A DNA stretch of 63,968 nt, the filler included, from Hausera hauseri (lineage: Eukaryota), in NCBI GenBank assembly GCA_046269625.1. It is 11 parts of 11 records of this genome, joined end to end, with 100 filler letters (N's around TTAATTAATTAA, not from the genome) between each part and the next. Parts side by side here need not be neighbours in the genome. Positions count along the whole stretch, not along the records: positions 1 to 7,079 come from JBJURY010039222.1; 10 more parts are not named here. The stretch is one strand, 5' to 3'. The position numbers were made by a program, and so were the translations under genes. Each line of letters starts with the position of its first letter. Within the stretch, counting starts at the first letter, position 1. The notes below the pieces were generated by a model. It made no database searches. It worked only from the letters and a program-made list of their open reading frames with translations, and was not told the DNA's origin. Below, one piece after another: positions 1 to 43,063 of this stretch.

Positions 1-3000
1 TCCAGCCATCTTTTAACTTTGATTTTTTTCATCTCAACTTATTGGTCTAACCATCACATTACACTTTTTTAAATCGCCTGAAGTGGCTTGATCCAAGTCA
101 ATTCCATTTAGCCACATCTCTTGCAACAAGAATTTGCCTACTATCGTAATAGTACCTACAAAACCTAAAGTATCAAATATCTTTGTCAAGGTGTTTAAAA
201 CATTTCTTTTAGTTAATTCACTTTTACAGTTTTCTCAGTTATCGAAAATTAAACAATCTTCTTTCACTTCCCATTTAAGTCCTAATGCCTTTGATGTACA
301 ATTAATTTCACGCTTAAATGTATATTCTTTCAATTTTTCATCTTGTGGAATTACATCGTGTAATCGTTTTGAATTTGATAACCACTTATGTGTTTTCATT
401 TTTGCAATACCCTAAATTTCTTTTAACTGATAATATAATTCGATAACTTCATTTTCAGCTTCAACGGAGTCAGTACAGTGATCCATATATGTTGATTGTC
501 TGATAGTTTCGACCGCCCGTGGGTATCGACTTTCAAATGTGTCTGCATTAATTTGGATTATGAACTGAACTAAGAAGGATAATGCTTTCCACCCAGATAT
601 AAGCCTTGTAAACTGGTAAGTTTCAGTCTTCCCTTCATTTCTCCGTAAGAACTGTACAAACTTTCTGTTACAAGGTGAAATATCAATTTGCAGAAACATT
701 TCGGCCATGCCGCAAATTAATACAAATTCATTCTTTTTCAATTCTGATTAAAATGCCAAATAAATCTTGTTGTAGTTTCGGATATAGTAAGCCATTCAAA
801 CTCTTTTTACATTTGCAACTGCATCAAAAACTATTCTGACTTTAGTAGTGGATTTATCTGCTTTCAGAACATGGAAGTATAGTCGTATCCAATGATTTGT
901 TTCACTTTGTTTGTTCACCAAACTCTACATATACTTTCTTTATGTGATTTTCGAATATTTGTCCATAAGCTGTTTTTCTTAAATATTTAAGCTAAGCTTT
1001 TTTCCAGATATTCGAGTCTCTTTTCTGCCATGTATCCTTCCAATGCAGAGAAATTTCGTATCTTCCATCTTCGGTTTTCTTTATTTTATTTTTTGTAATC
1101 TGAAATATTTTCCTATCCAACTTTGACCAAGGTTCCTTTTCTCGGTTAAATTTTCACTTTCCCATAGTCTTCTTATGTTTTCACTTACTTTGTCTACCTT
1201 GGTCCAATATGTCCGTACCATATTGTTACGTACCAGTGTTTTTTCTTTTATCCAAACCCCCGACAAAAGTCCAGTCGAGGGGAGTTAATCTGACTATTGG
1301 TTCTCCTAACTTTCCCGAAATTTTCTTTACTAATTTGTGAAAATGGATACAATTTACTCCTATTATTCCATCCACACGTCTGTTTTTTCCAATTTCTGAA
1401 AAGTTGATTCCTTGTAAATGTGACAAACGTCTTTTTTCTATAGTCCATTCAGTAACGTTCATGTCTCCTGTAGGTTTTTTCATGGAGAGTGCATCAAATC
1501 GTTTACAAATGTTATTGCCTAAGCTTTGTAATAGCATGTGAACTCTTATCATCTTTTGTTTCTGTTGAATCTCCCCAACCACTGATACCATAATGTCTTT
1601 TTCTTTCCCATTGGGTTTTAATTATNNNNNNNNNNTTCTTCGAGAAAACTATCTATACTAGCATCGTCTAATAACATATTTACTTTAATTCTTTGGCTTT
1701 CGCTGATTAAATATACTGATATAGTTCTCAAAGCCACTCTGTCTTGAAGAGCAGACAACTTGTGCACCATCTTTGTCATGTAGTTCGTTTTTCTAAGATA
1801 TCGAAATCATTTACTTGACAGAAATCATCTTTATGTTCTGATTTTGCCGCATTTGTATTTGACGGCATTCCAGTTGTGGTACCCACTTTAGCCCACATCA
1901 ACAATTAAAAAACATGACGATTGATCTTTGTTTAAATATCCGGTTTTTGAGTTTACATTTTGAATTGTAAAAAAATATGGATCAGTTTGAAAGTTCGTGG
2001 TTCACGATATTATTTTAAATTTACCTTTACCATATAGTGGTTTATTCTATTAGATTAATTCTTTTTATAAATACATTTCTGGTTGAGTTGAGAGTTAGAA
2101 AATCTCTAATGACTTATTTTTTGGAAAATTCAAATTCTCTTATAATTCGATGCAACCCACTGGGATTTTTAAAAATAATTCTGGTAATCAAAAAATTACT
2201 TCAAGAAATGTTTCTGGTTTATTTGGTGATGTACATTCGTCGTCTGGCGGTGGTAGTAGCTCATTTTTACCAATGCAATGAACGGTGAATACTTCATTAA
2301 CTTTTAGATTTCGTAATGCATCAACAGGCCTTGGCACTTCTTCAAATATAGCATATGGTTTCAGAGAAATTAACACCAGTATTATTAAAGTTTTCGTTAG
2401 AAACGTTCCGGTTTATAGATTTTGAAACTATATCGTGTCTAAATCTACAATTTGCACCGTATTTGCAATTTCCATTTTGATAGTATATACAAGCCCTTTT
2501 GTCTATGTATTTATCATTACTTCAATCTTCTTTTTCATGCCGATAAGAACATGACTCACCTAGACGACACTTCCCTGTCTGGAAATACTTAAAAGCCTTC
2601 GTTGATTTCCCGTTTCTATTTGCCATTGAGTATAGTTGCTTGAATCCTTGCCATTCTTTTGTCCATTTTCACATCCTTCACATTGTTAAAGTTACACTTA
2701 TTTGTCAATTTAAGTTTATCTTCTCTTATTGGTGAAAAATGACTTTTTACTATCGTTTCTAAATGTCCTTGTTTAAATTTATTTGGCATTGAGGAAATAA
2801 CTCCAAGAACTCCTTCTGCGGCGACACACTTTAATTCAGCTTCCTTTTCCATTCATATCTTGCAATTCTGTACATTCCGTTTTTATCCTTATCTTCGCGG
2901 TAACGTTCCCAATTCAACGCCATTAATTCAGGTAGCTTTTGATTGAAATTTGGTATAATGTACTCCCGTCCAACTCCGTTTCTCGACCTAAATGTTTTAA

Positions 3001-3345
3001 TTTTACAATAACTGATTCTAGTAATATGACGAAAGAATCTAGTATTTTTATGTTAGACACCTATTTTCTGAAATGACTTCCATGACGTCTGACATGAGAG
3101 AAGCATAATTTCTCTGATTTCCTCCTTAATAGCGGTCCAACTTTTCTATTGCTGCTTTGTATGAGATCACGGTTTCAAATTAAACGTTTTGTTTTTCCAA
3201 ACGAAGAGTTTTCTAGTTGTATTTGTTTGTCGATAGAAGAAAGCGATGTATTATCGGCACACATTTTAAAAATGTTTCTATTTTTAAAATTCTGCAACAT
3301 TTCCATCAAACTTTGGGAGTTCGATACGCTTCCATTTGGCGCTAA
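1..3345 (-). mobile_element. BEL/Pao LTR retrotransposon gag-pol, decayed
   Basis: Minus-strand motifs in BEL order: Gag KRIELPKFDGNVAEF...DNTSLSSIDKQIQLENS (about 3200-3340), QKLPELMALNWERY..MEKEAE, protease VALRTISVYL..IKVNMLLDDAS (about 1640-1740), IVRLTPLDWTFVG, RT AEMFLQI..YQFTRLISG..STYMDH (412-741), then KALGLKW..TKRNVL..KIFDTLGF (1-410). Many stops and frameshifts. Confidence 0.9.
2435..2597 (-). other. Two tandem CCCH zinc fingers inside the BEL Gag region
   Basis: KA(F)KYFQTGKCRLGESCSYRH and RACIYYQNGNCKYGANCRFRH match C-x7-C-x5-C-x3-H. The first Cys of finger 1 is TTT (likely from TGT). Confidence 0.85.
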
Positions 3346-3348
3346 ATA

Positions 3349-4467
3349 TTATTTCGTTGGTCTTTTATAAAATATTGGTTCTGCTAGACCTATGTTGTCG
3401 TCGATATACTGACAAATTTCCACTCCAAGTACAACTGGGGTTAGTAGCACTCTGAAGTGAATACCAGTGTGAAACATCATAGACTTCAATTTCATTGTTG
3501 TTTTTGATCCTATTGTATTTGTTTGTGGATTGATTCCATCGTAATTTTCATTCTGAGCTCGCCATTGGATTTTCCCACAGGCCATATATATTAGGATTTT
3601 CTCAAATGGTTGTTCTGGTTGGAACATTTTGACGAAATCAACATCATATAGCGGCTTTTCTAATTTGATAATCCTAAATAGTCTTTCATTTATGGTGGCG
3701 GTTTTCAGTGAATTGTCTAGATAGCGACATTGAGTATACATCAAATCAGATGAGGTTTCCATGAGCTGGATTAACTTGTTATAGAATTTGGAGGAGTATA
3801 GATTGTTGTGGGCATCATATATCGGAACAAATTTTGTATACATTTCTTCCCATGTACGATTTTTTAATCTATCTTGTTCCGTCTCTTGGAGATTTTTGGT
3901 GATTTGTTCTCCTAATTTCATTCTTTTATTTTCGGGAAGGTCTTCAAATGTAAAAGATTTTCTTATTTCACCTTGATATTCAAATGGTTTCATATTTTCG
4001 GGCTTCTTTGTTGGAATGGTTGTATTCAAAATTCCTCTGGTTATTGGGAATGCTTGATTTGGATTTTGGAATGTGAAAGAAGTGGTAGACTGGTTCTGGG
4101 GTAGTATAACCCTTCTTTTAGGGTTAGGGACTACTGATATGACGGAATTGTTACTGTCTGTATCGGATCCATCTAGATCTGGATTGAAGTTTGTTTCTTC
4201 TAACTCAAAAACATAGGTTGGTGTATCCATGCTGAAAAGAAAGATAAATTGATAGTAGGTCGCTTTTAATGGCCTGTTCGAAGAGTAGGTGGTTACTATT
4301 TGATTTTTTATTTGTTGTTTGTATTGGTGCAAATCTATTGGTTTAGATTTGCTTGCATGTGCTATTGTAGATGCATGTATGAGTTTTACACGTTTGTGTT
4401 TTTTGATGTGTATAATTTTAGAATTTTTAATTACCCCAACCGTCTTGACGTCGACTGTCCACTCCAC
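3349..4467 (-). CDS. Orphan ORF of unknown function (likely start MDTPTY near 4230), probably a 3' accessory ORF of the gypsy element
   Basis: 372-codon uninterrupted ORF in otherwise decayed DNA; no recognisable motif. Confidence 0.45.
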   Translation of the reverse strand: MEWTVDVKTVGVIKNSKIIHIKKHKRVKLIHASTIAHASKSKPIDLHQYKQQIKNQIVTTYSSNRPLKATYYQFIFLFSMDTPTYVFELEETNFNPDLDGSDTDSNNSVISVVPNPKRRVILPQNQSTTSFTFQNPNQAFPITRGILNTTIPTKKPENMKPFEYQGEIRKSFTFEDLPENKRMKLGEQITKNLQETEQDRLKNRTWEEMYTKFVPIYDAHNNLYSSKFYNKLIQLMETSSDLMYTQCRYLDNSLKTATINERLFRIIKLEKPLYDVDFVKMFQPEQPFEKILIYMACGKIQWRAQNENYDGINPQTNTIGSKTTMKLKSMMFHTGIHFRVLLTPVVLGVEICQYIDDNIGLAEPIFYKRPTK

Positions 4468-5568
4468 AACACAACCAAATTAAAGATATTAGATTGGTGG
4501 TTAGCAATAGAGTCTTATTCATAATGGCTCGCTTTTTAGAGAATCTTTTTATTTCTATTATTACGAAGGGTGTGGAAATGGACAGTAGAAGGAATACTAT
4601 TATTATGGAAGGTACTAAGATTTTAACATATTAGTTTGAGTAGTGGGACTAGTTACTAGATGTAGGGTTGTATAAATTGGAAATTCTTCAAGTGCTAAAT
4701 ATTTTCTAGTTCTCGTTTGAGTTCTAATTGTTCGATGTCTCGTTACAGCATGGTGTTGAGTGAAAACGATTAGATATTCTTCATCAGGCTGGAGGTCAAT
4801 GCATCTAGTTATCCTTTCGTGCTTTTTTATAACGGCGTATATTATGTGATATTTTCCTACACAAGTTATTGAAATAGGATCGTCTAGTAATTGCAAGACC
4901 TTAAACTCAATATACGAGTCTGTTGCTATCATGGTGACATCGGGTATTTTATTTAGGCTAACTGTAGTAATTTGTTTATTACTAAAGGTCGATAATGTAG
5001 TGATAGTTGATGTTATTACTTGTTCTATTTTAAAGAATTGCAGTAATGGCATATGAATATGGAAGTTCAAGGCTTTTTCGCCGGATTTGTGTTTGAATAA
5101 TCTAGGGAAATAATATGTTATTTGCAAGTCAACTTCGTTCGTTAAGGTGGGCCTTTTTATCATGACTTTGTCTATTAGTTTTGGTTCATTGTCCTTTTCT
5201 TGAGTAAAGAAAAAGGCAGGGCCAATTTTTTCTACGTACACCTGTTTTGCTATAAGCAGGATTTTCTGCCTTGGTTTCAACAACATTTCGGTTCTTAGGA
5301 AATAAAGGTCTATAAGGCAAATCTCGTTTAAGTATGGGGTTGAACAGCGCTTAGTTGACAGACAAATTGCGTCGTTTACTTCTGGTGACAGAACTAAATG
5401 ACTAATTTCTTTGTATTTTGATTCTCCTACGAATAATCCATTTATTAAGTTTAATGAATTTTGCCAGGTAATTTTTACCCGTAATTCTATGTTTGTAATT
5501 ATGAGGTCTGTTACCAAGGTTTGTACCGTTGTCGATAGTATTAGACCAAAAATCATAATTATAAGCAA
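4430..5568 (-). pseudogene. Post-integrase type I membrane protein with an FN3-like ectodomain
   Basis: Hydrophobic N-terminus LLIIMIFGLILSTTVQT and beta-rich body with VKITWQN and IDLQPDEEYLIVF. After a frameshift near 4620: TM segment ILVPSIIIVFLLLSISTPFVIIEI followed by KRFSKKR. Confidence 0.6.
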
Positions 5569-5639
5569 TAACTGTTCCAGGCTACAAGTTGGTTTTAAAA
5601 CTGGTTGTTTCGATGATCGTAATGAGTATTGGGGTTCTT

Positions 5640-7079
5640 CTTTGACTTTTAAATCCTTTGTCCTTTCTTAGCTCGTCTTTTTGCCAATGCCCTTTTCAAT
5701 GAATATATTTTGAGGGTGTAACCTTGACTACTAGATAAGATCCTTTACCTGTACCAGTTAGTTTTAATGATTTTCCTGGTTTCGCTACTGGATAATGTAC
5801 CATTACTTTACCACCTGGTTGAAATTTATGAGATTTAGCTTTTTTATTATAGTACGCCTGGTACTCTTGTTTATATTGCTTGATGGCTTGTTCAGCTTTC
5901 TCCCAACAATTTGCTAAACTGTTTACAACACTTTTATGTATTTCTTCATCAGACTGATCTTCGGATATTTCCTTTTCTGGTAATAACTGGATATCCATTG
6001 GCAGTAGTGGTTTTCTACCATACATGAATTCAAATGGTGTATATCCTGATGAACTAGTAGGTGTAGTTGCAATTGCAAACTGCACAACTTTTAAGTGGAT
6101 GTCCCAATCCTTTTGTGTCTTATCTATCATAGCTGATAGTATACATTGCACGGTATAGATAAATCTTTCGACTTTACCACTGCATTGAGGATGGTATGCT
6201 GTTGTTAGCAACCGGTTAGTTTGACATATATCTGTTATTTCTTTTAATAGTTTGCTTCGGACGTTTGGTGCTCTATCTGTCAATAGATAGCGTGCGGCAC
6301 CAAATTGACAAACTATTTTGCTAATAAACTTTTTTGCAACTGTGATAGCTAACAAATCCTTTGTTGGTATATGGATAGGATAGCTGGCCAAATAATCGGT
6401 ACATAACAATATGTATTTATTTCCTCTTGGAGTTGTCGGTTAAGGTCCAGAAAAATCCATAACGCATAGTTCCATTGAACTACTTGGTTCTGGTAGTGGC
6501 TTCAGTTCCGATTTATATCGTATTCCTTTATTTTTCATTGTTGCACACATTTTGCACTCATCCACCTAATCCTTAACATCTTGCTCGATTGTAGGCCAGT
6601 AATATTTCTGGTTTATTCGTTTTTTAGTTTTTCGCGAAGATGGATGACCCGCTAAATTTGAGTCATGTTCTTGGTAAAGTATGGCATTTCGTAGTCGTTT
6701 TGGTACGACTACTAAAAGTTCTTCATTTTTATTGTATTTTAGCACATTTTCATTTAGTAGGAATTTTTCACCTTCTCATTTGAGATATTTAGTCAATTTT
6801 TCATGNNNNNNNNNNTCGAGTTTTAACATAGTTGATAATATAGCTGGTTTGTTGATCTTCTGCTTGCTTTTCAGCTATACTATTTGTATTTATTTCTCGA
6901 TATTGTTTCAACATTTTATTAAAAAGGTGCTCTTCTTCATCTAATGATGAAATTATTTCATACATCCCTGATAATGCATCTACATCTGTATTATCCTTAC
7001 CAGGTCGATATCTAAATTCTATATTAAAATCGTTGATGTATGCTAACCATTTATTCATACGTTTGGTTAGTTCCTGGTC
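5640..7079 (-). mobile_element. Ty3/gypsy RNaseH end plus integrase (glycoprotein-carrying lineage)
   Basis: IEFRYRPGKDNTDVDALS; HHCC region (HDSNLAGHPS..C..C); LLTDRAPN..TTAYHPQCSGKVER. The C-terminal VHYPVAKPGKSLKLTGTGKGSY is closely similar to 26587-26880. Confidence 0.92.
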
Positions 7080-7179
7080 NNNNNNNNNNNNNNNNNNNNN
7101 NNNNNNNNNNNNNNNNNNNNNNNTTAATTAATTAANNNNNNNNNNNNNNNNNNNNNNNNNNNNNNNNNNNNNNNNNNNN
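7080..7179. other. Artificial contig spacer N44-TTAATTAATTAA-N44 (also 13527-13626, 22613-22712, 28658-28757, 32798-32897, 37183-37282, 42851-42950, 47439-47538, 53785-53884, 59804-59903)
   Basis: Identical 100-bp linker with stops in all six frames occurs ten times. Confidence 0.98.
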
Positions 7180-10100
7180 GGTCTTGCCAAAAACGCTGTT
7201 ATTGTATAGTTTGAATTGATCTTTCTCAAAGTCGTTCTTGGCATTAGTCCGCAGCATCGTATTGATATCTATGTATGACTGCAGCCACATGGACTGGTTG
7301 AACTGCAGGGTTCTATGGATCTTAGTAAGGCGAAGTCCATGTCTAACTTCCTGCTGGACATTGATGTAGTGAACTACATACCTCTCCCTATTACCCAGAT
7401 GACAGAGCAGCTTATGCTTTCCATGGGGCGGAGGCCTGCTCTCGAAGGAAAGGCAGTTGTTAATGCCTTGCGTGGATGGATGCAGGATATTCTATATCCA
7501 CCTCCAGTATGTAGCCCGTATCTCCAGTGGGATCCAGATCCAATATAGGTATATGTTCAGGATTCTCGACCCATTTGAAGTTATCATATGGCAATGGGGC
7601 GCTCATATACTTGTTGTTAGCCTCGCTATACCGGTGAATGGTCTGGCGTATTCCGCCTCTAATGCCTCTGTTGATCATAAGGATTATGTCGTAATCCTTA
7701 ATGATCTGCAGCCTTATGCCGGTATATCTAAGCGTAGCTGCCCAGCTCATCCCTGTGGCCGTAAAGAAATGAGCCGGATCCAAAGCATGGCTCTTCACTG
7801 TTACATTCCTGAAACTCTCAAAGACATCTGTGAGCAGCAGCACGTCCGTCTTGAGGTAAATTTTGCTGTATTCCCTAATGTTCGGCAGTGGAATGCATGT
7901 TAGACGTTCTGGGCATGCTGGTAGTCAGCATCACTGATATCGGAATAAGACAGGATACTGTAAAAGTCCTTCTTGTCCGGCAATGAGGTCTCATCCACTG
8001 TTTCCCATGAGGTTATGTAGTCATAAGGAAACACGCCTTTCCTCTTAACAAGGTCAAAGGTAGTGGGAAAGAATCGCTTCGTATAGTTGAGTTACTCTGC
8101 AGGGAGGTTCTTCACTAAACTGTCCAGTAACGAGCTCATGAAGCGGATGCTATCTATGAAGCGAAAACTGATGTGGCCCACCTGCTTGGTGAAAGTGATG
8201 TATTTTTCCTCATTATTGGGAATGACATCAATATTTCCTTCAATGTTGCCCAGTTCCCGAACAATGAAGTGGGAATCATAACCACTGAGGTTGTGGAACA
8301 CTACAGGCACATATGTGCATGTTTTGCAGCGTAAGTTGCAGTTGTTGCATGCTGCACCTCAATATTTGCCTGTAAAATGGCAATGATCCTTGACTTTATG
8401 ATTTTCCTTGGTGAAGAGCTTGTCGCACAAGTAACATGTAGTTGTCTTGCACCATTCTTCAGTTTGCTGCTTCGACATGCTCATTGTATCCTTATGCTGC
8501 TGAAATATGTTTTCAAGCTTATGAGCTATGTCTTCTAATCTCTTCATAAAATGTGGTGCTGCAACTGACCGTATGAATAGAAATGGTTCACAGTCCAGTC
8601 CTTTGGCATATATACAATATGATGAGAGTTAATGATATTGGTATGTTGTTGTGCTGCTATGTTGGGGATTAATGCTGCAGCTGTGAACTGGGCTGAAGAT
8701 GGCCTCAAAATCACAGTAGGCGACAATCGGTGCTTTCTGCATCTTCTCGAACTCCTTGAATTCCAGGTAATCCTCCTTGAGGAATTCTGCTCGGATGCAA
8801 TAGTTTGTATTACAATAGGTCTTGTGCTTTACCAGTTTTTCTGCGGCTGTGTCCCCATTAAAATGGGTAAAGCATCTCTTGCATATTTCCAGCCTTGATT
8901 CATGCTTGGATATTTGGGATCCTACGAAGCGCTCAAAATTCTTGATTTAGATGAAATGCCTCGTTTCTCCATCATCTAGCAGGAGTAGATCCCTATGATC
9001 CTCCAATCCCTCCTTGCATACATGTAATGGATAAAATTTATCCTCCTCCAATCCAAAGGTGCTGATTGAGATGTTGTTCATGCTTTCAAATTTCACGACT
9101 TCATCTAGGCTCGGCGGGAATGAAGTCGTATGTGTTCTGCAATTTGTCATATATCCAAACTCGGGAAGCATTATGTTGATCCTGGACTAGTTTTGGTAAA
9201 ATGGCACACATGAACCACATGTTGTCATTAATATGGACATTGATATATGCCTTTTTCTTAACTATACATTTAGGAAGCGGTATGTAGGACCTGCCGCTCG
9301 TGGGAGAATACTTGTGCTAAAGTCCAACCGCTCTTCTTGTATTGGCTTTCTTCGGCTTCACGTATGAGCCTTGATTAGTCCTCTGTAATGAAATCCTTAA
9401 TGTTAAAGATTTTAATAGTGTCCTGTTCTTTGTCTTGAAGGCTCTATTAGACAGCTCTCCTTTGACATTAGTGCATGTGGCTTCCAATTTGAAGTTATCC
9501 TTAAGGGTCTTCAACTCCAACAAGTTGTCCTGGTAAATTCCTGATGCCTCCTCCCTTAAATATTCCAGGAAATCATAAAATGATGTCTGCCCCGCTGCTG
9601 CTATGAAGTATCGCCGCACTTTTCTCTTCAGTGCAGCTGCCTCAACTGGCCGCTGTCTTTGGCTTTATGATGGAGCATCTTCTGCTACTTCTGATAGGCG
9701 TTTTGGTTTTCCGTTAGGCCTTTCTGCTAAAGCAGGCCTTGCTGCCAAAGCAGGCTGTGCTGCCAAAACAGGATGCTTCTCATTAAATATGACCTTCTTT
9801 GGCTTTGAATTGAAGTCTGTCAAATGGGCAATATGATCTTTGTAAAACAGCATGTATTCTCCATCACATACAGCCTCACATCCAGGGCAAATATAATAAA
9901 GGAGGGCTGTGTATTACACATGTGTAATACGCATATAAACTGCACCCTCTATTTTCCTTTGGCATGAAAGTCGTTATTGGCATATTGGTACTGAATATTT
10001 GTTTTTTCAATTTGGTGAAAGAAATCAAGTGCTGTTTATGGACATTGTAAAAGACTTCATAATTGATTTGGCACAGTACCTCACATGTAGGGCATATGTA

Positions 10101-10205
10101 ATACTGAACCCTGTTGTACATATGAACAGAGTACTTATTCATGACACTGTGGCAATTTTCCGGCTCGTGGATTTGAGCCAAACATTCGCTGTAAAGTTTG
10201 CACAT
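7180..10205 (-). pseudogene. Polinton/adintovirus-type protein-primed DNA polymerase B with endonuclease VII (HNH) insert, copy A
   Basis: [81 protein letters not shown]. Multiple lesions. Confidence 0.92.
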
Positions 10206-10690
10206 CTAAAATCGACCAGTTATTTTGAGGAGCACAATTAAAGAAACCCAAAATTTGTTGAAGTGATTTTGGAAATAATGAAATATATTGCTATATCACC
10301 ATGTACTGCCTCGCTTATTGATTGTTTTTAATGCACTTTTGTTTTGATGTATCAATTAAATTAAATATCTGGCGGCGCCAAATTTAAGGTTTTCGACCAT
10401 GGGGAATCAAACGACGAGATTAGATTCTTTGAACAATGCATTATTGACCGAATATTCGAGTTCGAATAATTAAGTCTTCGACTTGTAAGCTCGAATTCGA
10501 ATATCTAACATCCTATTCCGATTCAGCATACATGTCTTCCTATCCCGCCCCGCTTAAAAATTTATTGATTTCTGCTTTACTTAGCCTTAAATGCAGGTTT
10601 TGCTTAATTCGAAATATTGATTTTATGACTATATAGTAAATTTTCATGGAATAATTTTTATGTATAAGGGGGTTGTGTTTCCAATGAAAT
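10206..10690 (-). promoter_or_regulatory. Conserved upstream non-coding region of the pPolB family (homologous to 13192-13526 and 63410-63968)
   Basis: The three copies align. They share GCGCCAA(A), TCGA-rich palindromes and an 18-bp TTCCTATCYSGSCCCGCT-type motif. Confidence 0.6.
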
Positions 10691-10762
10691 TGAACAAAGA
10701 ATTTAATCAAATGTACATATATTTAAGTATAGTTGAGACAATAATGGTAGGTTCAGAACGAT

Positions 10763-13191: not shown

Positions 13192-13654
13192 TTATTTGAG
13201 GAGCACAATTAAAAAACTCGCCATTCGTTGAAGTGATTTTGGAAATAATGAACAATATTGCCATATCACAATGTACTGCCTCGCTTCTTGATGGGTTTTA
13301 ATGCGCCTTTGTTTTAATGCATCAATTAAATATAATAGAAGGCAGCGCCAAATTTAAGGTTTTCGACCATGAGGAATCGAATGGCGTCATTAGATTCTTC
13401 GAATAATGCATGTTTGACCAAGTTTTCGAGTTCGAATAGCTAAGTATTCGACTTGTGAGTTCGAATTCGAATTCCTCGTGTCATACTCCGATTCGGCATA
13501 CATGACTTCCCATCCAGCCCGGGTATNNNNNNNNNNNNNNNNNNNNNNNNNNNNNNNNNNNNNNNNNNNNTTAATTAATTAANNNNNNNNNNNNNNNNNN
13601 NNNNNNNNNNNNNNNNNNNNNNNNNNAAAAGTCATTTTTATAGATGCTATAGAA

Positions 13655-13950
13655 CAGCAGTTCTCAACACCCAATGCATGCTCTAAGTGTCCAAGCTACC
13701 ACTCACCTGACTTATGCAAACAGGCTTCTGCTGAGGAGATTTTGCAATAATTACAGGATAACCTTTTTCGGATTCACTTGAATCGGAGATACAAATTACC
13801 TAAGTCTCCTCTGTGTTGTATGTGAAAAGAAACTTGCAAATAGCACAATGGTACCTGCTAAATTAAAACGTCATTTTCAACTGAACATATAGGTCTTTCA
13901 TCAAAAATAAGGAATGCCTTAAAAGGCTTTTGGAAATGCAAGGTAAACAA
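13655..13950 (+). mobile_element. hAT (Buster/Charlie-type) transposon 5' fragment
   Basis: Terminus CAGCAGTTCTCAAC preceded by CTATAGAA (nnnTAnnn pattern). Translation FGFT..LCVVCEKKLANSTMVPAKLKRHF. Confidence 0.75.
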
Positions 13951-13959
13951 AGACAAGCG

Positions 13960-15640: not shown

Positions 15641-15869
15641 TTGGCAAATGGGGCATTCAATTACGATGGATGAAGCGAAATTACATCACTGAATCCCAGT
15701 CTAGAAATAGAGCTGTTTGTTAAAAAGTCCTTTGTGACGACAAAATAAATCAGTTTGCTGTTTGTGGAACGTTTTCTCCAGTTCGCAGCGAACACGAAGC
15801 CAAAGTTGTTGAATTAATAACTCGGTTTGATCCAACGGCTAGTGTATCTGTTAGTCACAAAATTGACTA

Positions 15870-18529: not shown

Positions 18530-18580
18530 AAAAAACTAAATTCGCCGCCAGCAGTCACGGTAAACTCTGGCAATGGCAAT
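18530..18580 (+). promoter_or_regulatory. Gag-pol -1 ribosomal frameshift signal (A AAA AAC, stop, hairpin)
   Basis: Slippery heptamer at the gag stop, with pol open in the -1 frame. Same arrangement at 47772, 52160 and 57670 (minus strand). Confidence 0.7.
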
Positions 18581-22712: not shown

Positions 22713-25700
22713 TGACTGCAATCATAACGCCTTTTGGGAAATTCTTAAAGGCATACGAAGAAAGTAGATGGAAATCGGACGTAGAACGCCATGCCGGTTA
22801 TTATATTCGTAAACGAAGGGGAAGGCCTATATTCTTGTGAAAGCGGAAATTTATAAAACCTAAAATACGAAGAAATAATTCAGATGATGACGAGCCTAAG
22901 GGAGGAAAAGTACTTTCAGAAATAAACAAACATAAGGCGTACCCTGTCATTAAAGCACAATTGCCTATGCTCCCTCCTACCGCTCCAGTCTATGAAGACT
23001 GCGACAAACGGTCGATGAGCTCATATCAGACAGAAATCTATAAAAGAACAATTAATGTAGAAGACCCTTATGGAGGAACGAAACGCTACGGGATCCCACG
23101 GAAAATGTGTTACCGATAGTCAACAGACGGTCTCAAGATGTTGTATTCTCCGACAAAATCTCGGAATATAGAAACTAGATCAACGGTTTGGGAAAACCTA
23201 AGGTTAAAAACCTTCCAGAATACTAAACTACACACTAACAATCGAGAACAATTAATTAGTACACATGAAACGGAAGAGTTACACATAGAAAACAACGAGT
23301 TATATCCAAATGAAGAATTAAGACAATTGTCGGAGAATATAGTATCCTCCCCCAAAATCCGAATCAATGGGCATAAAATATCGGCAACTAAACGTCCAAA
23401 AGTAGCAACAAACTGCTTTGGAACAGTAATAAAAGGAAGACCTTTCGCCTAAATCATTATCGAAGATTGGGAAGTTTATGCTTCAATTGATACAGGGTCT
23501 GAAGTGTCGTACATTAAAATTGAATCGATACCGCAATCGTTAAGGGGAAAATTATATCCACCGTCCACAAAAAATCCAGGACGTACGGGAGCTTTTGGTC
23601 AAATGTCGAAACCGATGTTCAAATGAAACCCAGAAGTTCAAATAGTTGGACAATTTTTCCATCACGAATTTGCAGTTATGGAGCAATTAACTGACGATGT
23701 AGTTTTAGGATGTTTTCTACTGAAAAGATTACCAAATATAGCAATTGACTTACAGACAGGGAAGTTAATAGAAATCAGGCCGAATAAAGGCGTGAAAAAC
23801 GCTAAGGATAGAAAATTTGGAGAGGTATTGATACCCGTAGACGAAGATATTCCACCGAGAACAGAAATGATAATTTACGCGCAAATTCAGAAGGATGACG
23901 CTCAACCGGTATATTTCGAATCAAAGGAGACATTAAATTTGAATATATTACTTAGTAACATACTGACAAGAATACACTCCGGTCGAGTACCGATTAGAAT
24001 AGCTAATAATGCCCAGACTTTAGTCAAGCTTTATGCTTATACGACTCTAGGAGATATGTATAGTGTTGTCGATAACTATTGAAGAAAAGCCTTATACGTA
24101 TGCCGAATTCACACCTCTTGTCGAAACTAAGTTCTCCCCCGAATCTTACTGTCGATTCTACAAATTATTATGCCGCTACAAGGACGAAGAACATATTGGT
24201 AGAGCGAAAGCGTTAAAACTGGCTATTCCACTCAAGAAAAGGCCTGGTTCAAACGAAGAAATAGACTTGAAAGACCAGAAGATGCCAAACTGGTACTCTC
24301 TATCATATTCACTAAGACCCGAAATAACAAGGGAAGTTGAACGAATGCTCAAGGCCGATATAATTGGGCCTAGCTATAGATCTTGGTATTCACCAATCCT
24401 CATGGTTGAGAAGAAAGGTACCATGAAACACCGATTTTGTATTGATTACAGAGCTTTAAACAATCTTATGATGAAGGATTCATTCCCATTACCGTCAGTC
24501 AATGAGGCTTTAGACAGACTCTCAGGAGCAAAATGGTTTACCACTCTGGACTTACAATCCAAATATTGGCAAGTGGAGATTAAGGACAAAGACCGTTATA
24601 AGACAGCATTCAAAACATACGACGGTGTTTATGAATTTAACGTCATGCTGTTTGGTATTACTAGCGGGCCAGCCATATTTACGAGAATGATGAACAAAAT
24701 GTTAATGGGATTGGATCATGCTTTTGCGTATTTAGATGACGTGATGATAGCATCAAGAAGCGAATAGGAACATTTAAAGGACATTGAACACACATTAATG
24801 AGATTGGAACAAGCCGGATTTAAGTTAAATCCAAAGATATGCAAATGGGCTCAAAATGAAGTATCCTACCTTGGCCATATATTTGGAGAAGGAGGATCGA
24901 AACCCGATAAATCGTTATTAAACAAAATATCGGATTGCATGGAGTCACAAAACCAGAAGGAGTTAAGACACTGGCTAGGACTGTGCGGTTATTACGCCAC
25001 TTATGTGCCGGATAATTCAATAATAAATGCACCTTTATGTCGCCTACTTAAAAAATAAATTAAATGGAAATGGACAAACGTCGAGCAGAAAGCCTTCGAT
25101 GAGATGAAGAAGATATTAACAAATGAACCTGTTTTACGATACACGGGCTTTAACTTACCTTTTGTAATCAAAACAGACGAAAGTAAAGAAGGTATTGGAT
25201 ATGAATTAGCGCAGAAAAGAGAAGTTGAAGAGTTGAAACACCCGATTGCTTATGGAGTACGTTCCTTGAAAAAGGCCGAGAAAAATTATTCTGCTACCGA
25301 ATTGAAAACTCTAACCGTAAAAGAAGCACTTCGACATTTGAACGTTTATGTATACGGGCAGAAAATTATAATTGTCACTGAACACAAAGCCGTTACTACC
25401 TTAAAAGGCCGAGCAAATAACCCAACATGCAGACTTAACAGATGGATCGAAGAAATATCGAGATACAATATCGAATTCCAGTACAAGCGAGGAAATAAAC
25501 ATGTAGATGCCGATGCACTATAGAGATTAAGGATTAAAACGAGTGCAATTACTGTAATAAAGAAAAGTCAACTCGAAGAAATAATATATCGCCAACGCAC
25601 CTTAACAAGGGACAAAACAATTAAAATATCAGCAGAACAAAGGAAGGATAAAGTTATTCAGCAGATTGTAGAATTTGCTAAAAGGGATACCATATCAAAG

Positions 25701-27660
25701 GGACAACAGTTAAAGAAACCTTTACACAGACACGGACATAAATATTGCGTCTTAAACGACAAAAAGCAATGAGAATATTTTATATTACGAACGGAAAGGA
25801 AGAAACTTGATAGTTATTTCAAAAAGGCTGCAAACCAAAGTGCTAATGTCGAAACATGACTCATATTTAGCCGGACACATGTCCTGGAAGAAAACATTAG
25901 AAAGAATACTGAATAAATATTTCTGGCCCAGTATCTATATTGATGTGAAAAATTGGGTAAATGCTTGTGAAGTATGTGCAACTAAACAAAAGAAGACAAA
26001 AAATTACATGGCCGAATTAAAACCAATAAATGTGCCCGATAGGCCTATGCAAGACATGTCTATGGATATTGTAGGACCTCTTTCTACAACCCACAAGAAC
26101 AATAAGTATATATTGACTTGTATTGACAGATTAACTTATTTTGTCGAATTGATAGCGCTAATTGATTAAAAGGCAGAAACTTTAGCAGAAGCCGTAGTAA
26201 GAAAAATTATTTGCCTATATGGGCCCCCAGATCAGATATTCACAGATCGAGGAAGAAATTTCACAAGTGAATTATTCGAGAAAATCAGCAAGATATTTGA
26301 AATCGAACGATTAACAACTACCGCATATCATCCTCAGTGTAACGGAATGGTCCAACGGATGAATGCTACCGTCATGCGCATATTATCAACAGTAGTAGCA
26401 AAAGACCAGAAAGATTGGGACGAATTTTTAGAAGAAACTCAGTTTGCTATTAATACCACACCACATCCAGCGACAGGATTCACACCATTCTTCATGGTGT
26501 ATGGACGTGAAGCTGTGCTGCCCACAGACTTAAGGATGACGCCATACACAAACAATCTCGAAGATTTAGAGCAAAATTTTGCATAAGTGCTACAAACGCG
26601 ATTGCGAAAATGCTGGGAAATCGCCAAGGAATTATCCCAAGAATATCAAGAACAGTTTAAAAATCAGTATGATAAGAAGGCGAAACCGCATGATTTAGAA
26701 CAAGGAAGTTGGGTTTATGTACATTATCCAGTAGCCAAAAAGGGCATATCACTAAAATTAACTCGTACAGGCAGAGGACCGTACGAACTTACCAGAGTTA
26801 CGCCAACCACATTATATATCAACAAAAACGGAAAGGAAGAAGTCGTGTCAGTACAAAGAGTTGTCAAAACAGATATATGACCTAATAAACGTTACAATTT
26901 ACGCCAACGCGAGTTAAAGACTTTTTCAATAATCGCTAGACCAATATCGTACGTTCAGATAGTTTTAGCAATATCGCTAATTGCTTCTTATATTCCGAGA
27001 ACACAAACTTAATGGTAGCACGACGAATCTACGCTAGGAGATATATACGAAATTTGGAAGGGTGGATCAGGATTGGAGGCTATTGTAGCTGAAAAGAAAC
27101 CAACAGTCGAAGAAATTCAAAGACAAAATATAAGATTATTACAATCAGTATCAATTTCCTATTACTCGCCCAACTCCACATGCGTTGGATTTAAGGCGCG
27201 GAAACCACACCACGATTTTGGGAGATTTCAAATCTTCTTAGATAATGTAATAACAAAAGAAGAAAAGGATTGCGATTTCGAACCCGGAGATCATACGCAA
27301 TGCTGTGACATAGATTTCGGACGCACTTATAACCTTACCTATCGTCTGTACCTACCGAACTTATCTAAAATCTATAAAATAAAACCACCATTTCAGTTAG
27401 TTAGTCCTGTGTGGAACAAACATCATGGAATAAAACCGAATAAAATGTTACGATCTACCGATCCAGACATAAAACTATTAGACGAAAATATCCAGAGAAT
27501 TTCGGTTAATAATGCACAACAATGCGTCCAGGTGAGAACTCGGACAGAGCTAACTGTCAGTCGAAAAATTAGTATCACATTCGAAGCACCAACCCCGGAA
27601 TTATGATATTGTTCTATTCGCGCAGATGTACAACACACTTATTGCAAACTGCCTGTAAAC
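22713..27660 (+). mobile_element. Ty3/gypsy element: glycoprotein tail, linker, PR, RT, RH, IN, signal peptide/FN3-like ORF
   Basis: PFGKFLKAYEESRW (22713-22790), IDTGSEVS (about 23485), RFCIDYRALN..YLDD, YSATELK, SMDIVGPL, TAYHPQCNG, RYNLRQR, then hydrophobic IVLAISLIASYIPRTQT and ORF 27073-27606. Confidence 0.92.
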
Positions 27661-28757
27661 CAGGATGATAAGTTTAAGGTTTTAAAATAAATCTAAAAAT
27701 TCAGATAAATGAGTTTGGGTTCTGAAACCTCAAACTTATGCTTATTTACTTCAGTGCAAATAGCTCAGGATATTGTTTTCCCTGAGCCTAATTACTTTAT
27801 TAAGTCTTAAAAGCCGCCTGTGGGGTCGGCTAGAAATCAAATTTAGGTAGATGTGAATTCGATCACCAGGAGGGACACTGGTGTCGTTCCCAGATTTTAA
27901 ATGATTTTGTGGTTGTACGGTTCTTTATGACCGTAAAACAATAGGGCACCCTTTTAACAGATTAATAAGAAAACCTTATTACAATAACCTTAATTTTCTT
28001 TATTAAGATTTATATTTAGGTAAGATAGAAAAAGATCAATACTACTCTAAACAATATAATTAAACCAAAATCAATAAATAGTCTTAAAAATTTATAGAAA
28101 GAAACATAAAGAAAACAACCCAAATAAATAAACACTTACACGAATAATAGTCGACGTACATGATAGGAGAATCAAACATAAAACAATAACTCTGTTTTTC
28201 AATACCGTGGGTTTATATACTCCTCTTTTGTGATAAACTATCAAATTGTAATTCAAAATGAATATCTTGTAACATGAATAAATTGAAGGCAAATAAATGA
28301 ACAATTCACGGTAATGAAATAAAAAGACGGACAATTAAAATAAGTAAAATAAACTCAGACAGTTAATTTACAATTTAATGAGTGCATAATAAATATGATC
28401 AAATAAATATGTGCACAAAATTTGATGTTGTTTACACCGTCAGTGTTGAAAGAATGTCATTTAATCATTCAAGAGTCTGTAATGTCAATTCGAGAGTTTG
28501 TAATGTCAACAAAATGAATTTTTACTATATGAAAAATAATCATTTACTTTTTAAATAAATGACACACTTGTCAAGTTCTAAAATCAATAACGATAAATCC
28601 CAAAGTGAATTTGAATTTTTGAACCATACAAGTATTGTGTAATGAATTTGAGTTTTANNNNNNNNNNNNNNNNNNNNNNNNNNNNNNNNNNNNNNNNNNN
28701 NTTAATTAATTAANNNNNNNNNNNNNNNNNNNNNNNNNNNNNNNNNNNNNNNNNNNN

Positions 28758-37282: not shown

Positions 37283-40060
37283 AGTATAACATAGCGAGAA
37301 TAGTAGTCAACCAGGGACAGAATGTATTTGTATCCTGAGTCTGAAGCTGGGAAGGGTCCCGGAGATATCCATTGAACACACTTCCATTGGTTTCCGTGCT
37401 TCTGGTAAGCTTCCTAAAAATGGTTTTGCATGAGATCCTCTATCTTTTCTAGTTGCACATATTTTACACGAACGTACCCATCCTTCAATATGCTTATTCA
37501 CTTGAGACCAATAATATTTTGCAGTTATTCGCTTCAAAGTTTTATTTAAGGACGGATGTCCAGCTAAATGCGAATCATGTTCTTGTAGCATGACAGCTTT
37601 AATGTCTGGAGTGGGTACAAGGATCAGTTTTCTCTGTCCAACTCTTAGTCGTAAAACACCGTTTTCAATTTCGAGGTTTTCTCGGTTCTTTTCATAAAAT
37701 TTTTGAATATGACTTGATACTGGATTGTGTAATTGACCGTTGATTAATCGTTTAATCTGAACAATAAAGGAGTCCTGATTCTGTATGGTCTCTAAGTTTC
37801 GTACTTGAATTTGACGTTGCTCTTGTAACATATCATTGATAATTTTCACATTCAGCTGTTTGTCATTTTCACTATCTACTGGTTTATAAACTGTGGCTGC
37901 AATCTTATCATATGGCATTCTCGAAAGTGAGTCGGCGTCCATGTTTTCTTTGCCGGGACGATATCGATATTCAAGATCATAATTCAAAAGTTTCAACTTC
38001 CATCTTTGGAGTCGATTTGATACATGCCTATTATCGGAACGTAAAGACAAAAGTGTCTTATTATCAGTGAATATTATGATTTTATGGCCATAAACGTAAT
38101 ACTCGTAATGTCGTAATCCATCACGAATAGCTAATAGCTCTAATTCAGTGGTTGAGTACTTTCGCTCGGCATTATTTAAGCTTCGTTTTCCGTAGGCGAT
38201 TACATGTTCAGTTGTTTCGTCTGGATTTTGTTGAGCCAATATATAAATAATTGCTTTTATGCTGGCGTTGGTTTTCAGGATAATTGGCAATGAAAAATCT
38301 GGGTATCTCAATATTGGAGCTGATACCATTCGTTTCTTGATCTCGTCAAAGGCATTCTGATTTTCTTCTATCCATTCCCATTTTTAATCCTTTCTTAACA
38401 GTTTATATTGAGGCTGACTAATTTCTGCAAAGTCAGTTATAAATGTAGCATAAAATCCTCCTAATCCTAACCAAGCCTTCATTTCATGGACATTGGTTGG
38501 TGGGGGATATTCTAAGATTTCGGATATTAAATCGGGACTAGTCGAAATTCCTTGGTTGGATACAACAAATCCAAGATATCTAACTTCTTTCTTGCACCAT
38601 TCGCATTTCTTCGGGTTTAATTTTAATTTAGCAAGTCTAATTCGATCGAATACTTCTTTTAATTCAGCTAAATGTGCGGTCCATGTTTTGGATGAAATGA
38701 GAATGTCATCAATGTATGATAATCCTCGTACTCCTTTTAGTACTAGGCGAATAAATTGTTGAAAGAAGGTAGGTGCTGTTTTCAGGCCAAATGGCATACG
38801 GGTAAATTGATAAACTCCGGTATGCGTTTTAAATGCAGTTACCCATCTGTCTTCTTCTGCTACGGGGATTTGCCAAAATCTACTTTATAAATCCAAGGTA
38901 GTAAAATATTTACAGTCTTTTAGTTCATCAATAATATCCCGAATTGGTGGAATTGGATAAGCATGATTTATTAGATGCTTGTTCAAAGTAACATAATTTA
39001 CACACAAACGATGTTTAGTCGTATTCGCTTTCTTGGCCATAACTACGGGAGAAGGCCACGGCGATTGACTTGGCTCTATAATTCCGTTATCTATCATCGC
39101 TTGAATTTGCTCTTCAACTTCCTTTTGGAGTGCTTTTGGAGGAGGGTACCATTTTGGTACAGGTTGTCGCAATAAATCTTTTTTTTTCCTGTTAAAGGGT
39201 CAATCATAAATGATAATTTGAATTTGACTAAATCAGTTTGTCCGATATCTGTTTCATTCTTTGCAAAAATGTCAAGATCCTCAAAAATGAGATCTGAGAA
39301 ATGTTGTTGATATTCTTCTGACAGGTTTTTCTTAGCTTTTGCGAGAACAACGTTTAATATATCTTCGGCATTTTCTTGTTCTGTGGTAGAAACGTTTGCA
39401 ACTTTGTTATCGTAATTTTCACGACGAGTCGTTTCAAGAGCCTGTCCAATTTTTGTTTTTGTGAATAACGTGACATATTTTGGTGTTGGATTTAAAACTT
39501 CCACTGGAATAGTTCCTCCAATTACATTGATGCAATAGTGTGGTAATATAAGTACATTTCGAAGAGTTTTAGGTACAAATTCAATGACACAGTTGTCTGA
39601 AAAATCTGTTCTAGCATGTATAACCATTCGAGAGTTGGGTGGTATTTTCTCAATATGTCCCACCCATATGTCTGCTTTGTCGTAATTAGGTGGTTTATCT
39701 TCATTATTTGGACAGATCAATCCTGATTGTAAGTTTATATGTACACCTTCCAATTTTCGTAACACATTCATACCCAAAATACATCTTGGGTCTAGAGTAA
39801 TCATCACATCAAAAGTTATCTTGATTTTCTGTCCACAAATCCATGGTTCACTTTTTCAATATCCATATGGTTTACTGCATTGTTGGAAAGCAGAAGTAGT
39901 ACCGGGTGAGTCTTTCGTAGCCAATTTTATTTGGAATTGTAATTCTTCTGGAATTGCATGTTTTGCTATTAACGCAACGTTGGCTCCAGTGTCCACCATA
40001 GCATTTAAATCTAAAGAATCAAAATGAACTGTTGTATGAGGTCTATTGTCTCGTAATAGT
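37283..40060 (-). mobile_element. Ty3/gypsy pol (PR, dUTPase-like linker, RT, RH, IN N-terminal part)
   Basis: AMVDTGANVALI; RLCVNYVTLN; MPFGLK..YIDD; KYSTTELELLAI; HDSHLAGHPS..C..C; SMDISG. Confidence 0.95.
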
Positions 40061-40749
40061 TCGAGGAATGTAAACACATCATTGTGATCATCAATATATG
40101 GTTCCATCAGAGTATAACTAGACGAACAATGTCTGTTGGTACTGTTAGATAAAATGGCGGTCAAACTTTCTTGTGATTGGATGTCGATTTCTGGTGTTTT
40201 GTTTTTATCTTTAAGTCCAGTTAAGTCTGGATGGCAACTAACATGCTTTGATGTTGTATATTGCTTATTGTTAAGCTCATAAGTAGCTAAATGGGATTTT
40301 CTGTCTGATTGAGTTTTTATTGGTCTAGTTACTTGATGATAAGGTATTGAGGGTAAAGTACCCATTTTGGGTGAAACCGGTAACGTTACTCGATTGTTTT
40401 CCATATTCCTTGTAATGATGGATTGCCGGATCTCATCTTGAGAGTATGTTGGCAAGGTTCGTAATTTTATGTATTCTTCTCTTTTCGCGTAAGGATCCGT
40501 TAAATCTGTTAAGTTTGGTAGTTTACAAATAGGCATTGTTTTATTATCATATGGTGTAGCAGGTAATTTATGTTTATCCTTTTTCTTTGGCTTCATAAAC
40601 TTGAATTTTCTTCTCGTATCCTTGGGAACTCTTGTCGTAGGATAATACTTAGGAGCATTACTGTCATCTGAACTTGATGAAGTGTCCTTAGGAAGTTGTT
40701 TCTCTAATTTATAGTCAACATGCTTTTCTAATTTGCCTCGCCATTGTTT

Positions 40750-42601
40750 CTTATGATAGGCCTTTATAAATTTGCCAAATGAGGAAAATAGAGCTCCTAT
40801 TATGCTCACTGACAGTCCCGTTAAATTATAAATCTCATAGGCACTTAATACAGAATTGATGCAGACTTTCAAGGTTTGTATAGTGAAGTATTTGGCCAGA
40901 AAACCTGAAGTTACTTGGCCAAATTTCGAGAATCCTCCCTACATTTTATACCACAAGTTTGAAACGATTTTAGAATAGGCGTCAGGTGTCCATAACCGAT
41001 CCCATTTTCCTTTTCCGGCTGTGTCATCTATTACTCGGTGTATTCCGCGATTTACTATTTGTTCTCTCTGTCTGGGATATGCTAAAAATTTTACAAATGA
41101 ATCAATTTCCTTTTTACTATATAGTGCTGATTTGGATACGTCGGTAAACATGTTGGTTTCAATAGCATGTTTTAAATTTGTTATCTTTAATTTCTTTGTT
41201 TTTTCTTTGACTCTGTAACGATCTGGTAGTCTAACCCAAAGGTCTTGATTATCATACTTGATAAACGGCTTGTTTAATGCTGAACAATTCTGAATTTCCG
41301 TAGGTATTGTATGAGGTGCCAGGAGCACTCTAGTAATAGGCTGAACGTATTGTATTTCCTCGTTATATTTAACGGGCATTTCCGAATAACATGAAGTGCC
41401 GGTAATCGACGGCAATTTTAATCGTTTACATTTGTAGGTATATAACACTTTTCCTAGGACTCTGCCTTGGATTTCTTCACCGAAAAAAGGGTTATCGTAA
41501 TCATCCCTGGATTGGATGCATAAATGGCCAAACGATTTCTTAGTGTTTCGAAATTGACTTTACAAAAATTTTGGATTGTTTCGGAATATATTTCTTCAAT
41601 TGTTTTGTGGGTTAGATAGAATAGAAAGGCATCTCGATTTGCGATATAATCGGCAATATTCACTAACTGAGCTCTAGTAGTGGGAGAATTACCGGCTCCT
41701 TTGATTTCGCTTTCTGACATAAAGTAATTGTCGTAATTCGTAATGAATACTTGTTGTCCACATTTTGTAATGGAATTCTGTTGTATAAATTTAACTCCTC
41801 TTTTGATATCCTTGGATATTAAAATCTTATGCGATTTTACTTCTAGAATAACTTGAATATTGGAATGCTCGAAATTAGTCTCATAGTGGCGGGCATACCG
41901 TTTTTCTGTAGTGACATTGAATTTTCCTTTTCTGATTTATACTAATGTACAATCGTAACTTGTGGGAGGTGTCCACTCTATCGCGGATGTGCTAGTATGA
42001 CAATGTCCTGTTTGTAACTTACAAAAAGATGCGTCTGCCATTGTATTTGTGCTGGTTTCGAAGACGTAGGTATTATCCTTAATTTCAACCTCGTACTGGT
42101 CATGCATTCGATACCTGCTTCGATGCCTTTTCCGGTGTCAGAATTTCCTCCTCTACAATTTCCTTTTTCATTCTTATAACCTGCAATCCATTTTTTTTAT
42201 TGAGTTACTTGTCCTTTTATGGCGGTTAATGGGATTTCTCCCCATTTAAGTTGCTGGGTTTCTCCCGCATCTCTACAATATGTTGGATTTACCGTCACAT
42301 ATTTAGATATAATGGTAGATTTAATGTAAGAGTCGTGGTGTAGATGACCGCAATGAGAAATAGTTCGGGACACGCGTAGAGAACATTCCAGTCCTTTTAT
42401 GTGCAACATAGTTTGATCATAGTAAATGTATAAGTTCTGCGTTTGGGTTTCCAATTTTCTCGGAAGAGCGTGCGGGTATGACTGAAGATCCATCAATGAT
42501 TAGTAACTTCCTTCATATATTTGATTGCAATTATAAGCTAATATTGTTCCGATCCTTTTAAAATTGGAAAATAACACCAATAAAAGTAACATAAGTTGCA
42601 T
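40750..42601 (-). pseudogene. Chuvirus/Monjiviricetes-like (class III) envelope glycoprotein, in frame upstream of the protease
   Basis: Signal MQLMLLLLVLFS..AYNC; CSLRVSRTISHCGHLHH; GNCRGG; C..C..W..P..C; NIADYI..IY..C..L.NRL..NP; CYSEMPV..VQPITRVL..C..P..W; ALYS..ID..LAYP; LW..GFSKFG..SGFL..INSVLSAY..G.S..IIGALFSS. These follow the conserved order of chuvirus-type G. Confidence 0.82.
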
Positions 42602-43063
42602 AAATATTCCATTGGACTTTACACCGTCACGTTTCTGAATTTCTTCCTGTATTTGACTGGTCATTTTCTCCGTAACAATGGGAACAATCTCTTCATGAGA
42701 TGCATTTAGAGTAATTTCTTGAATAGCTTTTTCTATATTTGTCGGTTCTGTTTCCAGTAAATTTTCGTTTTCATTGCGTAGAAATAAGTCACTCCATTTT
42801 CCATATTTCGGAATTATTGATTTGCTATCATGAATTATTTTACCAGTTGTNNNNNNNNNNNNNNNNNNNNNNNNNNNNNNNNNNNNNNNNNNNNTTAATT
42901 AATTAANNNNNNNNNNNNNNNNNNNNNNNNNNNNNNNNNNNNNNNNNNNNGACACTGAACAAAATACGTTATTGAAATATACAACAAAGCAATATACAAC
43001 GGATAATTGTCAATGATTGTCACATTAACTGAACTAAACTGAACTGATTGTTTATACGTGCGT

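Follow-up and report, generated by a model that had tools for sequence, protein, structure and literature searches.

What does the long open reading frame (ORF) encode that lies directly behind the integrase of a decayed Ty3/gypsy element in Hausera hauseri? The locus forms part of a 63,968-nucleotide stretch of DNA from assembly GCA_046269625.1 (hereafter the window), made up of 11 contigs of 4-9 kb each split by ten 100-base spacers of N. The spacers are artificial, carry an all-frame stop at their middle and lie at 7080-7179 and nine further places; because the window is a set of concatenated contigs, adjacency across spacers is meaningless. An earlier note on this DNA had read the ORF, here called ORF X, as a possible separate attachment protein with a signal peptide, FN3-like domains and a membrane anchor, either a partner of a G fusogen or a captured host receptor ectodomain. 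Our analysis indicates that the post-integrase ORF probably encodes a membrane protein of the element itself, and that this element and two relatives in the window are, on sequence evidence, env-before-pol Ty3/gypsy elements with a class III fusogen. These elements, A, B and C, lie on three contigs:

1-7079: contig A, carrying the element A integrase, ORF X and a further frame, ORF Y
22713-28657: contig B, carrying element B (plus strand)
37283-42850: contig C, carrying element C (minus strand) with the G fusogen

Anatomy of the frame behind the element A integrase

The contig of element A starts upstream of the integrase, within RNase H, and the integrase itself matches Gypsy-type Pol proteins with E values of 1e-31 to 1e-41. 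From the integrase onward the following features were recognized:

5696..6796, minus strand: Ty3/gypsy integrase, decayed, with in-frame stops at 6568, 6442 and 5698
5608..5667, minus strand: last part of the integrase C-terminal region with the tail motif, read in the ORF X frame
5518..5571, minus strand: predicted internal signal sequence, with a hydrophobic core and, judged by eye, small residues at -3 and -1
4615..5517, minus strand: predicted ORF X ectodomain, about 296 residues, beta-rich, with 5 cysteines
4430..4630, minus strand: transmembrane helix at 4606-4550 with a basic stop-transfer run and a short tail behind it, in a frame open from 4630 to 4430

The ORF X frame extends for 350 codons without a stop (5667-4615, minus strand) in DNA of about 34% G+C, and contains, in order, the integrase tail motif, the hydrophobic signal-like stretch and the beta-rich region, which perhaps comprises three domains of about 90 residues. 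None of 1000 base shuffles of 3300-6800 reached 293 codons, the longest frame being 203. Within ORF X the hydrophobic stretch gives a Kyte-Doolittle 19-residue peak of 2.28 at 5568, the sole strong peak in the frame, and its single Met falls inside the hydrophobic core, at 5556. The ectodomain frame terminates at a stop at 4617. The helix that follows has a transmembrane-grade hydropathy peak of 2.61, the only such peak in its own frame, and is succeeded by a basic run; the helix and stop-transfer segment claimed in the earlier note are therefore present, but displaced by one base from the ectodomain frame. A further frame break separates the integrase core from the ORF X frame just upstream of 5667, and a stop at 5670 shortly precedes the tail motif. 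On hydropathy alone, element A thus displays the anatomy of a type I membrane protein, namely a signal, an ectodomain, one helix and basic residues behind it. None of the three domain pairings within ORF X scored above shuffles as internal repeats.

ORF X in other copies and organisms

Logan contigs of four runs from four organisms (4 of the 6 runs listed) were placed on positions 1700-6800 at 80% likeness. In run X1, from which the window may derive, the summed contig depth per bin, which does not equal copy number, was 7,457-21,079 over ORF X vs 10,114-35,011 over the integrase, and contigs identical to the window locus had a depth of about 9. This contrast in depth indicates that ORF X is part of a repeated unit shared with the integrase. 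The runs of the three other organisms also cover ORF X, their gap-free pieces measuring 170-350 bases. At distances of up to about 20 bases from either frame break, contigs of several runs show length differences relative to copy A, so both breaks are likely to be lesions of copy A; at the ectodomain-helix junction, both of the listed contigs that span it carry one gap relative to copy A.

A class III fusogen and a post-integrase ORF in one element

Because the window consists of joined contigs, no physical linkage connects ORF X with the G gene at 42600-40700. The relevant features of elements B and C are:

22718..22816, plus strand: C-terminal tail of a G fusogen, element B, cut by the contig start, in a frame that leads to the protease
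23438..26877, plus strand: protease, reverse transcriptase, RNase H and integrase (decayed), element B
26881..27606, plus strand: tail motif, then the signal-like stretch ending at 27009 and the post-integrase ORF (27019-27606), element B, in the integrase frame
27966..28022, plus strand: candidate decayed membrane helix (weak), element B, peak 1.62, interrupted by stops
39856..42630, minus strand: class III G fusogen (PF24664), element C, interrupted in places, on its own contig
37283..39855, minus strand: reverse transcriptase, RNase H and start of the integrase, element C, cut by the contig end

In element C, three pieces of G exceed the PF24664 cut-off upstream of Pol, and the C-terminal part of G shares a single open frame with the protease (40938-39856), the two being joined by an in-frame linker of about 250 residues. 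A signal-like stretch lies internal to this G at approximately 42625-42540, with a coiled-coil-like region before it. Whatever precedes G lies off contigs B and C, which start within G or shortly ahead of it. The start of element B is 39% identical to the tail of the element C G, with a score of 89 that none of 500 shuffles reached. Element B, which opens with this G tail and runs on through Pol to a post-integrase ORF, thus combines the two. The integrases join the three elements: in a tree of 16 rows and 112 columns A, B and C form one clade (support 98/99), and in a tree of 19 rows, from which six near-identical outgroup loci had been dropped, A groups with B (99/95). The env-before-pol assignment of all three elements follows from the fusogen tail of B and this single clade; element A is linked to G only through the integrase clade. 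The protease, reverse transcriptase, RNase H, integrase order is seen in both B and C, and the composite order pieced together from them is G, linker, protease, reverse transcriptase, RNase H, integrase, hydrophobic stretch and long ORF. The proposal of a second element-encoded membrane protein beside the G fusogen is supported by these results, the ORF co-occurring with a G tail in the decayed element B.

The slot behind the integrase is laid out similarly in A and B. In both, a hydrophobic stretch with the same two-residue ending follows the integrase tail, as had been reported, with hydropathy peaks of 2.28 in A and 1.89 (at 26929) in B, and the stretch, counted by hand from the tail motif, ends after 37 residues in A and 39 in B. 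The common ending is not evidence of homology, since the ORFs themselves are dissimilar. The element B ORF comprises 195 codons with 5 cysteines and 3 N-glycosylation sequons, and the weak helix candidate sits about 320 codons past the signal-like stretch. Integrase and ORF do share one frame in this plus-strand copy, as the earlier note had it, but that frame is interrupted by stops at 26878, 27010, 27016 and 27604. From the integrase tail through the end of the signal-like stretch, element B contains no Met.

Searches for relatives, family and fold

Searches with the ORF X protein returned no relative among 718 candidates of a word-indexed search (lengths 176-562 only), none among 1.84 billion representatives with phmmer, and no usable match in the ESM Atlas. 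The language-model recognition scores, 1668 and 1798, are below the level of most known families. Sequence searches of the PDB gave zero, zero and three chance rows, none of four proteins matched PHROGs, and none of the 61 pattern matches in metagenome contigs or the 46 in genome contigs was a relative. Pfam DUF7634 was considered for ORF X and rejected (E 0.031; 15 bits, under the cut-off of 27). Fishing with the integrase yielded 5 proteins and 23 loci at 24-37% identity; neither G nor ORF X is present in any of them, the one row obtained having E 0.5, and viral contigs gave none. The lack of any relative disfavours a recently captured host receptor ectodomain, which had been offered as an alternative in the earlier note.

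The FN3-like signatures noted by eye proved no better than chance. On a 14-domain FN3 profile ORF X scored 0.4 bits, with 136 of 500 shuffles as high, and the element B ORF scored -1.1 bits (355 of 500). Held-out FN3 domains, by comparison, reached 8-60 bits in 13 of 14 cases, although overlapping loci inflate some of the higher scores. Pfam fn3 (PF00041) matched neither the whole ORFs nor five sub-pieces. In the ESM Atlas an FN3 cluster stands at rank 13 for the element B ORF with a score of 0.76, under the tool's level for more than a lead. Folding and Foldseek comparison, suggested as a check, produced low-confidence models and no significant match: a single-sequence fold of the whole ORF X ectodomain had a predicted local distance difference test (pLDDT) score of 31.6, the last domain folded alone gave seven strands at a pLDDT of 50, again low confidence, and a structure search with that last-domain model found nothing significant in three libraries. 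Immunoglobulin (Ig) and FN3 chains were frequent in the Foldseek list, with TM-scores of about 0.2, and were given no weight. We regard an FN3/Ig-type sandwich fold for the ORF X protein as possible, at somewhat less than an even chance.

Proposed explanation and its alternatives

We propose that the post-integrase ORF is translated by continuation from the integrase. Entry from the integrase frame is favoured because element B has no Met before the end of its signal-like stretch and the only Met of A lies inside the hydrophobic core; that the frame runs from the integrase tail into the signal-like stretch, with no upstream start in B and an internal one in A, in turn argues for one polyprotein. 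By reading, five outgroup Pol proteins finish soon after a similar tail without a hydrophobic extension. The fusion of G and protease in one ORF of element C offers a precedent within the same family. Production of the membrane protein from a polyprotein is accordingly the better bet, by a modest degree. The mature protein is probably separate, as the earlier note had it, whereas the gene is not, its frame continuing from the integrase tail.

In this scheme G would enter the endoplasmic reticulum (ER) by its internal signal, and its anchor would return the chain to the cytosol, where Pol would then be made. The hydrophobic stretch behind the integrase tail would redirect the chain into the ER, signal peptidase would free the ORF X ectodomain, and the last helix would anchor it. 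The element protease would free the integrase from the membrane stub, so that the enzymes would be made in the cytosol between two anchors. G and the ORF X protein, made one to one, would arrive at the same membrane, where the ORF X protein would bind a host surface molecule and let G fuse, this being the least-supported step. Flavivirus and alphavirus polyproteins contain internal signals of such a kind, and fusion by herpesvirus gB relies on separate binding proteins. Attachment is the preferred role on account of the large ectodomain, the lack of visible fusogen hallmarks and a divergence much faster than that of Pol; we advance it tentatively, as something that may be so a little less readily than not. 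The same degree of reserve applies to the reading as a whole, that of an env-before-pol element whose second type I membrane protein issues from the same polyprotein as G and Pol and acts as the attachment partner of G. Broader still, and in our judgement rather unlikely as a complete package, would be an invertebrate endogenous retrovirus lineage that carries two envelope proteins: ahead of Pol a class III fusogen, and behind the integrase an attachment protein that evolves fast and may be of FN3/Ig type, both made in one polyprotein whose internal signals bracket the enzymes, with a spliced accessory ORF Y behind.

Several observations weigh against this reading. No relative, family or fold was found for the ORF X protein. 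The post-integrase ORFs of A and B lack detectable similarity in any frame or domain pairing (66, 256 and 138 of 300 shuffles score as high), so homology between them, whose absence the earlier note had named as a refuting result, finds no support at the level of pairwise sequence comparison, and the slot may hold unrelated genes. N-glycosylation sequons number zero in the 304 residues of the element A ectodomain. No intact copy was seen: in A as in B, a stop or a break of frame interrupts the passage from integrase to ORF. The contig of element A stops short of G, and no long terminal repeat (LTR) was found: the repeats listed include no LTR pair, which would in any case be hidden because the 5' ends of the elements lie off their contigs, and no clear purine tract was recognized. 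Finally, the 40 of 1016 variant places listed, which are dominated by copy A's own differences, show no clear bias to the third codon position: it accounts for 7 of 16 such places in ORF X and for 8 of 19 in the integrase.

The facts behind the attachment role would equally fit an element-encoded membrane protein that acts on the producing cell, whether by blocking receptors, as an immune decoy or in cell contact, its divergence driven by an arms race with the host. Such a protein would have the same anatomy, and the ORFs of A and B have diverged beyond recognition while their integrases remain 44% identical. Rhabdovirus- and chuvirus-type class III fusogens bind and fuse alone, so G need not have a partner. 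Probable one-to-one synthesis with G and Pol, as we infer it, suits a structural protein better, and we consider a producing-cell role improbable, though it comes nearest to the attachment role. Somewhat less probable again is a variable cassette, into which A and B independently captured different secreted or membrane genes, the layout being convergent or partly due to chance; splicing, an internal Met or read-through of a stop may then express these genes independently of Pol. The missing A-B similarity, the different patterns of cysteines and sequons, and a stop just before the tail motif in both copies (5670, 26878) all speak for independent capture, and bdelloid LTR elements are described, in the part of that source consulted, with family-specific third ORFs (PMC5408684). 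Yet the tail motif and the hydrophobic stretch recur in the same order at near-equal spacing, a comparison of the integrase ends by eye puts the two stops at non-equivalent positions, other stops are scattered elsewhere in both copies, and B lacks a start codon ahead of its signal-like stretch.

The two remaining alternatives carry still less weight. Capture of a host FN3-type receptor ectodomain, carried as cargo, draws on the FN3-like strand patterns seen by eye, the seven strands of the last-domain model and the lead-level FN3 cluster for the element B ORF; against this, FN3 scores lie within shuffles, Pfam fn3 is unmatched, and a recent capture of an FN3 receptor should have given some relatives among 1.84 billion representatives. 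We judge it improbable. That there is no working gene at all, only a chance open frame or a decayed 3' relic, is very improbable: 350 codons without a stop at about 34% G+C, a signal and an anchor in the correct order and diverged gap-free pieces in other organisms all stand against it, whatever is made of the frame breaks at both ends of copy A, the absence of relatives and the low recognition scores. The attachment reading remains the one we prefer.

ORF Y and the remainder of the window

Behind ORF X lies a further long frame:

3349..4230, minus strand: ORF Y, 293 codons from Met

Its start Met is directly preceded by a pyrimidine tract and AG, resembling a splice acceptor. Neither a signal sequence nor a membrane helix is predicted, and no relative was found among 345 candidates, nor a Pfam family or PHROGs match. 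In run X1 depth was 194-519 over most of ORF Y and 19-75 below 3068, in a region that by reading is BEL/Pao-type; in the same run a diverged version of ORF Y, with a depth of 166, is contiguous with the upstream unit. ORF Y is thus repeated and joined to the integrase-ORF X unit in other copies, and is likely a second accessory gene of the element. On the 14-domain FN3 profile it scored 6.1 bits, with 3 of 500 shuffles as high; it was one of three proteins so tested, and the score is probably due to chance.

A decayed BEL/Pao-type gag-pol (3360-1, minus strand), so labelled by reading translations, adjoins ORF Y and may have cut off the 3' end of element A. The window DNA in general is animal, with many mobile elements and pieces of ankyrin, CPSF_A-family and bromodomain genes. 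Decayed gene copies resembling the protein-primed DNA polymerase B of Polinton/Maverick-like elements lie at 7400-13500, 43000-46100 and 60700-63900, two of them in tandem about 2.9 kb apart; this label is by reading, and the one piece tested against Pfam gave no match. Another Gypsy family, outside the G-bearing integrase clade, is present in three copies at 17000-22300, 51500-53700 and 54500-59100.

Outside the window, metagenome Gypsy elements (L001 4861-6612, L014 and L018) have integrases with a chromodomain-type end, behind which lies a separate ORF with a signal; by reading, this ORF resembles an F-type env. Prokaryote genome records (L020-L023, from G001 and G002, the former of 20.3 Mb) contain Gypsy integrases together with short FN3-coding frames that look animal; these are probably host DNA inside the bins.

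Comparison with known systems

Statements on published systems refer to the portions of each source consulted. Ty3/gypsy elements with a gB-type env before pol have been described from Nematoda, Bryozoa and Platyhelminthes (Chary and Hayashi, PMC13524379). In these GAG-ENV-POL errantiviruses of HSV/gB type, a class III fusogen lies upstream of protease, reverse transcriptase, RNase H and integrase, as it does here, and the cysteine spacing of the element C G is, by eye, closer to six Schmidtea 'C1a' rows than to eight bryozoan rows, which would point to a flatworm as host. What differs is the protein behind the integrase: no membrane protein in that position is described in the part consulted, and the terms 'fibronectin', 'immunoglobulin', 'extra ORF', 'polyprotein' and 'in-frame' do not occur in the main text. 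LTR calls accompany 6 of the 10 bryozoan GAG-ENV-POL rows shown, whereas 8 of 9 flatworm rows lack one inside the 3 kb searched. By arithmetic from the supplement, the distance from the POL stop to the 3' LTR in the six bryozoan rows is 1.1-2.2 kb, enough to accommodate ORF X either by itself or along with ORF Y, the two spanning about 2.2 kb in A. If our reading is true, it would explain the unannotated 1-2 kb behind POL in the published elements.

In the giant Gypsy elements of the planarian Burro type (PMC6431247), too, a single polyprotein that includes accessory domains has env placed in frame between gag and pol; in element C, G and protease share one frame. In contrast, the Burro env is described as homologous to gypsy Env, whereas G here matches PF24664, and the Burro extras (BIR, MATH, BCL2-like and ankyrin) precede Pol or lie in upstream ORFs, whereas the extra protein here follows the integrase. 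Element-encoded membrane proteins besides the canonical env are also represented by sORF2 of Drosophila MDG1-group elements (PMC11952523) and the transmembrane-type ORF3s of bdelloid elements (PMC5408684). Those proteins are short and replace a missing env; ORF X has an ectodomain of about 300 residues in a fusogen-bearing family. With FN3 domain proteins (PF00041), ORF X has in common its beta-rich character, domain-sized repeats, a few motif resemblances by eye and, in a low-confidence model, seven strands; it is unlike them in that its profile scores are at chance and no structural match was found. Troyka (PMC12440569) was considered as a close system and set aside, no env being reported in the part of that source consulted.

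The element type is therefore apparently already known, and a second large membrane protein after the integrase was not found described in a search that did not extend to Repbase and subscription papers. For most env-carrying invertebrate retroelements the mechanism of transmission is unknown (PMC13524379), and a second, rapidly diverging surface protein is a candidate specificity factor for the choice of target cell. Relatives are multi-copy in Schmidtea, a tractable animal, with copy numbers up to 215 (PMC13524379). Should the reading hold, protease, reverse transcriptase and integrase would be made in an unusual topology, between two membrane anchors, and a reverse-transcribing element would divide binding from fusion in the manner of herpesviruses or paramyxoviruses.

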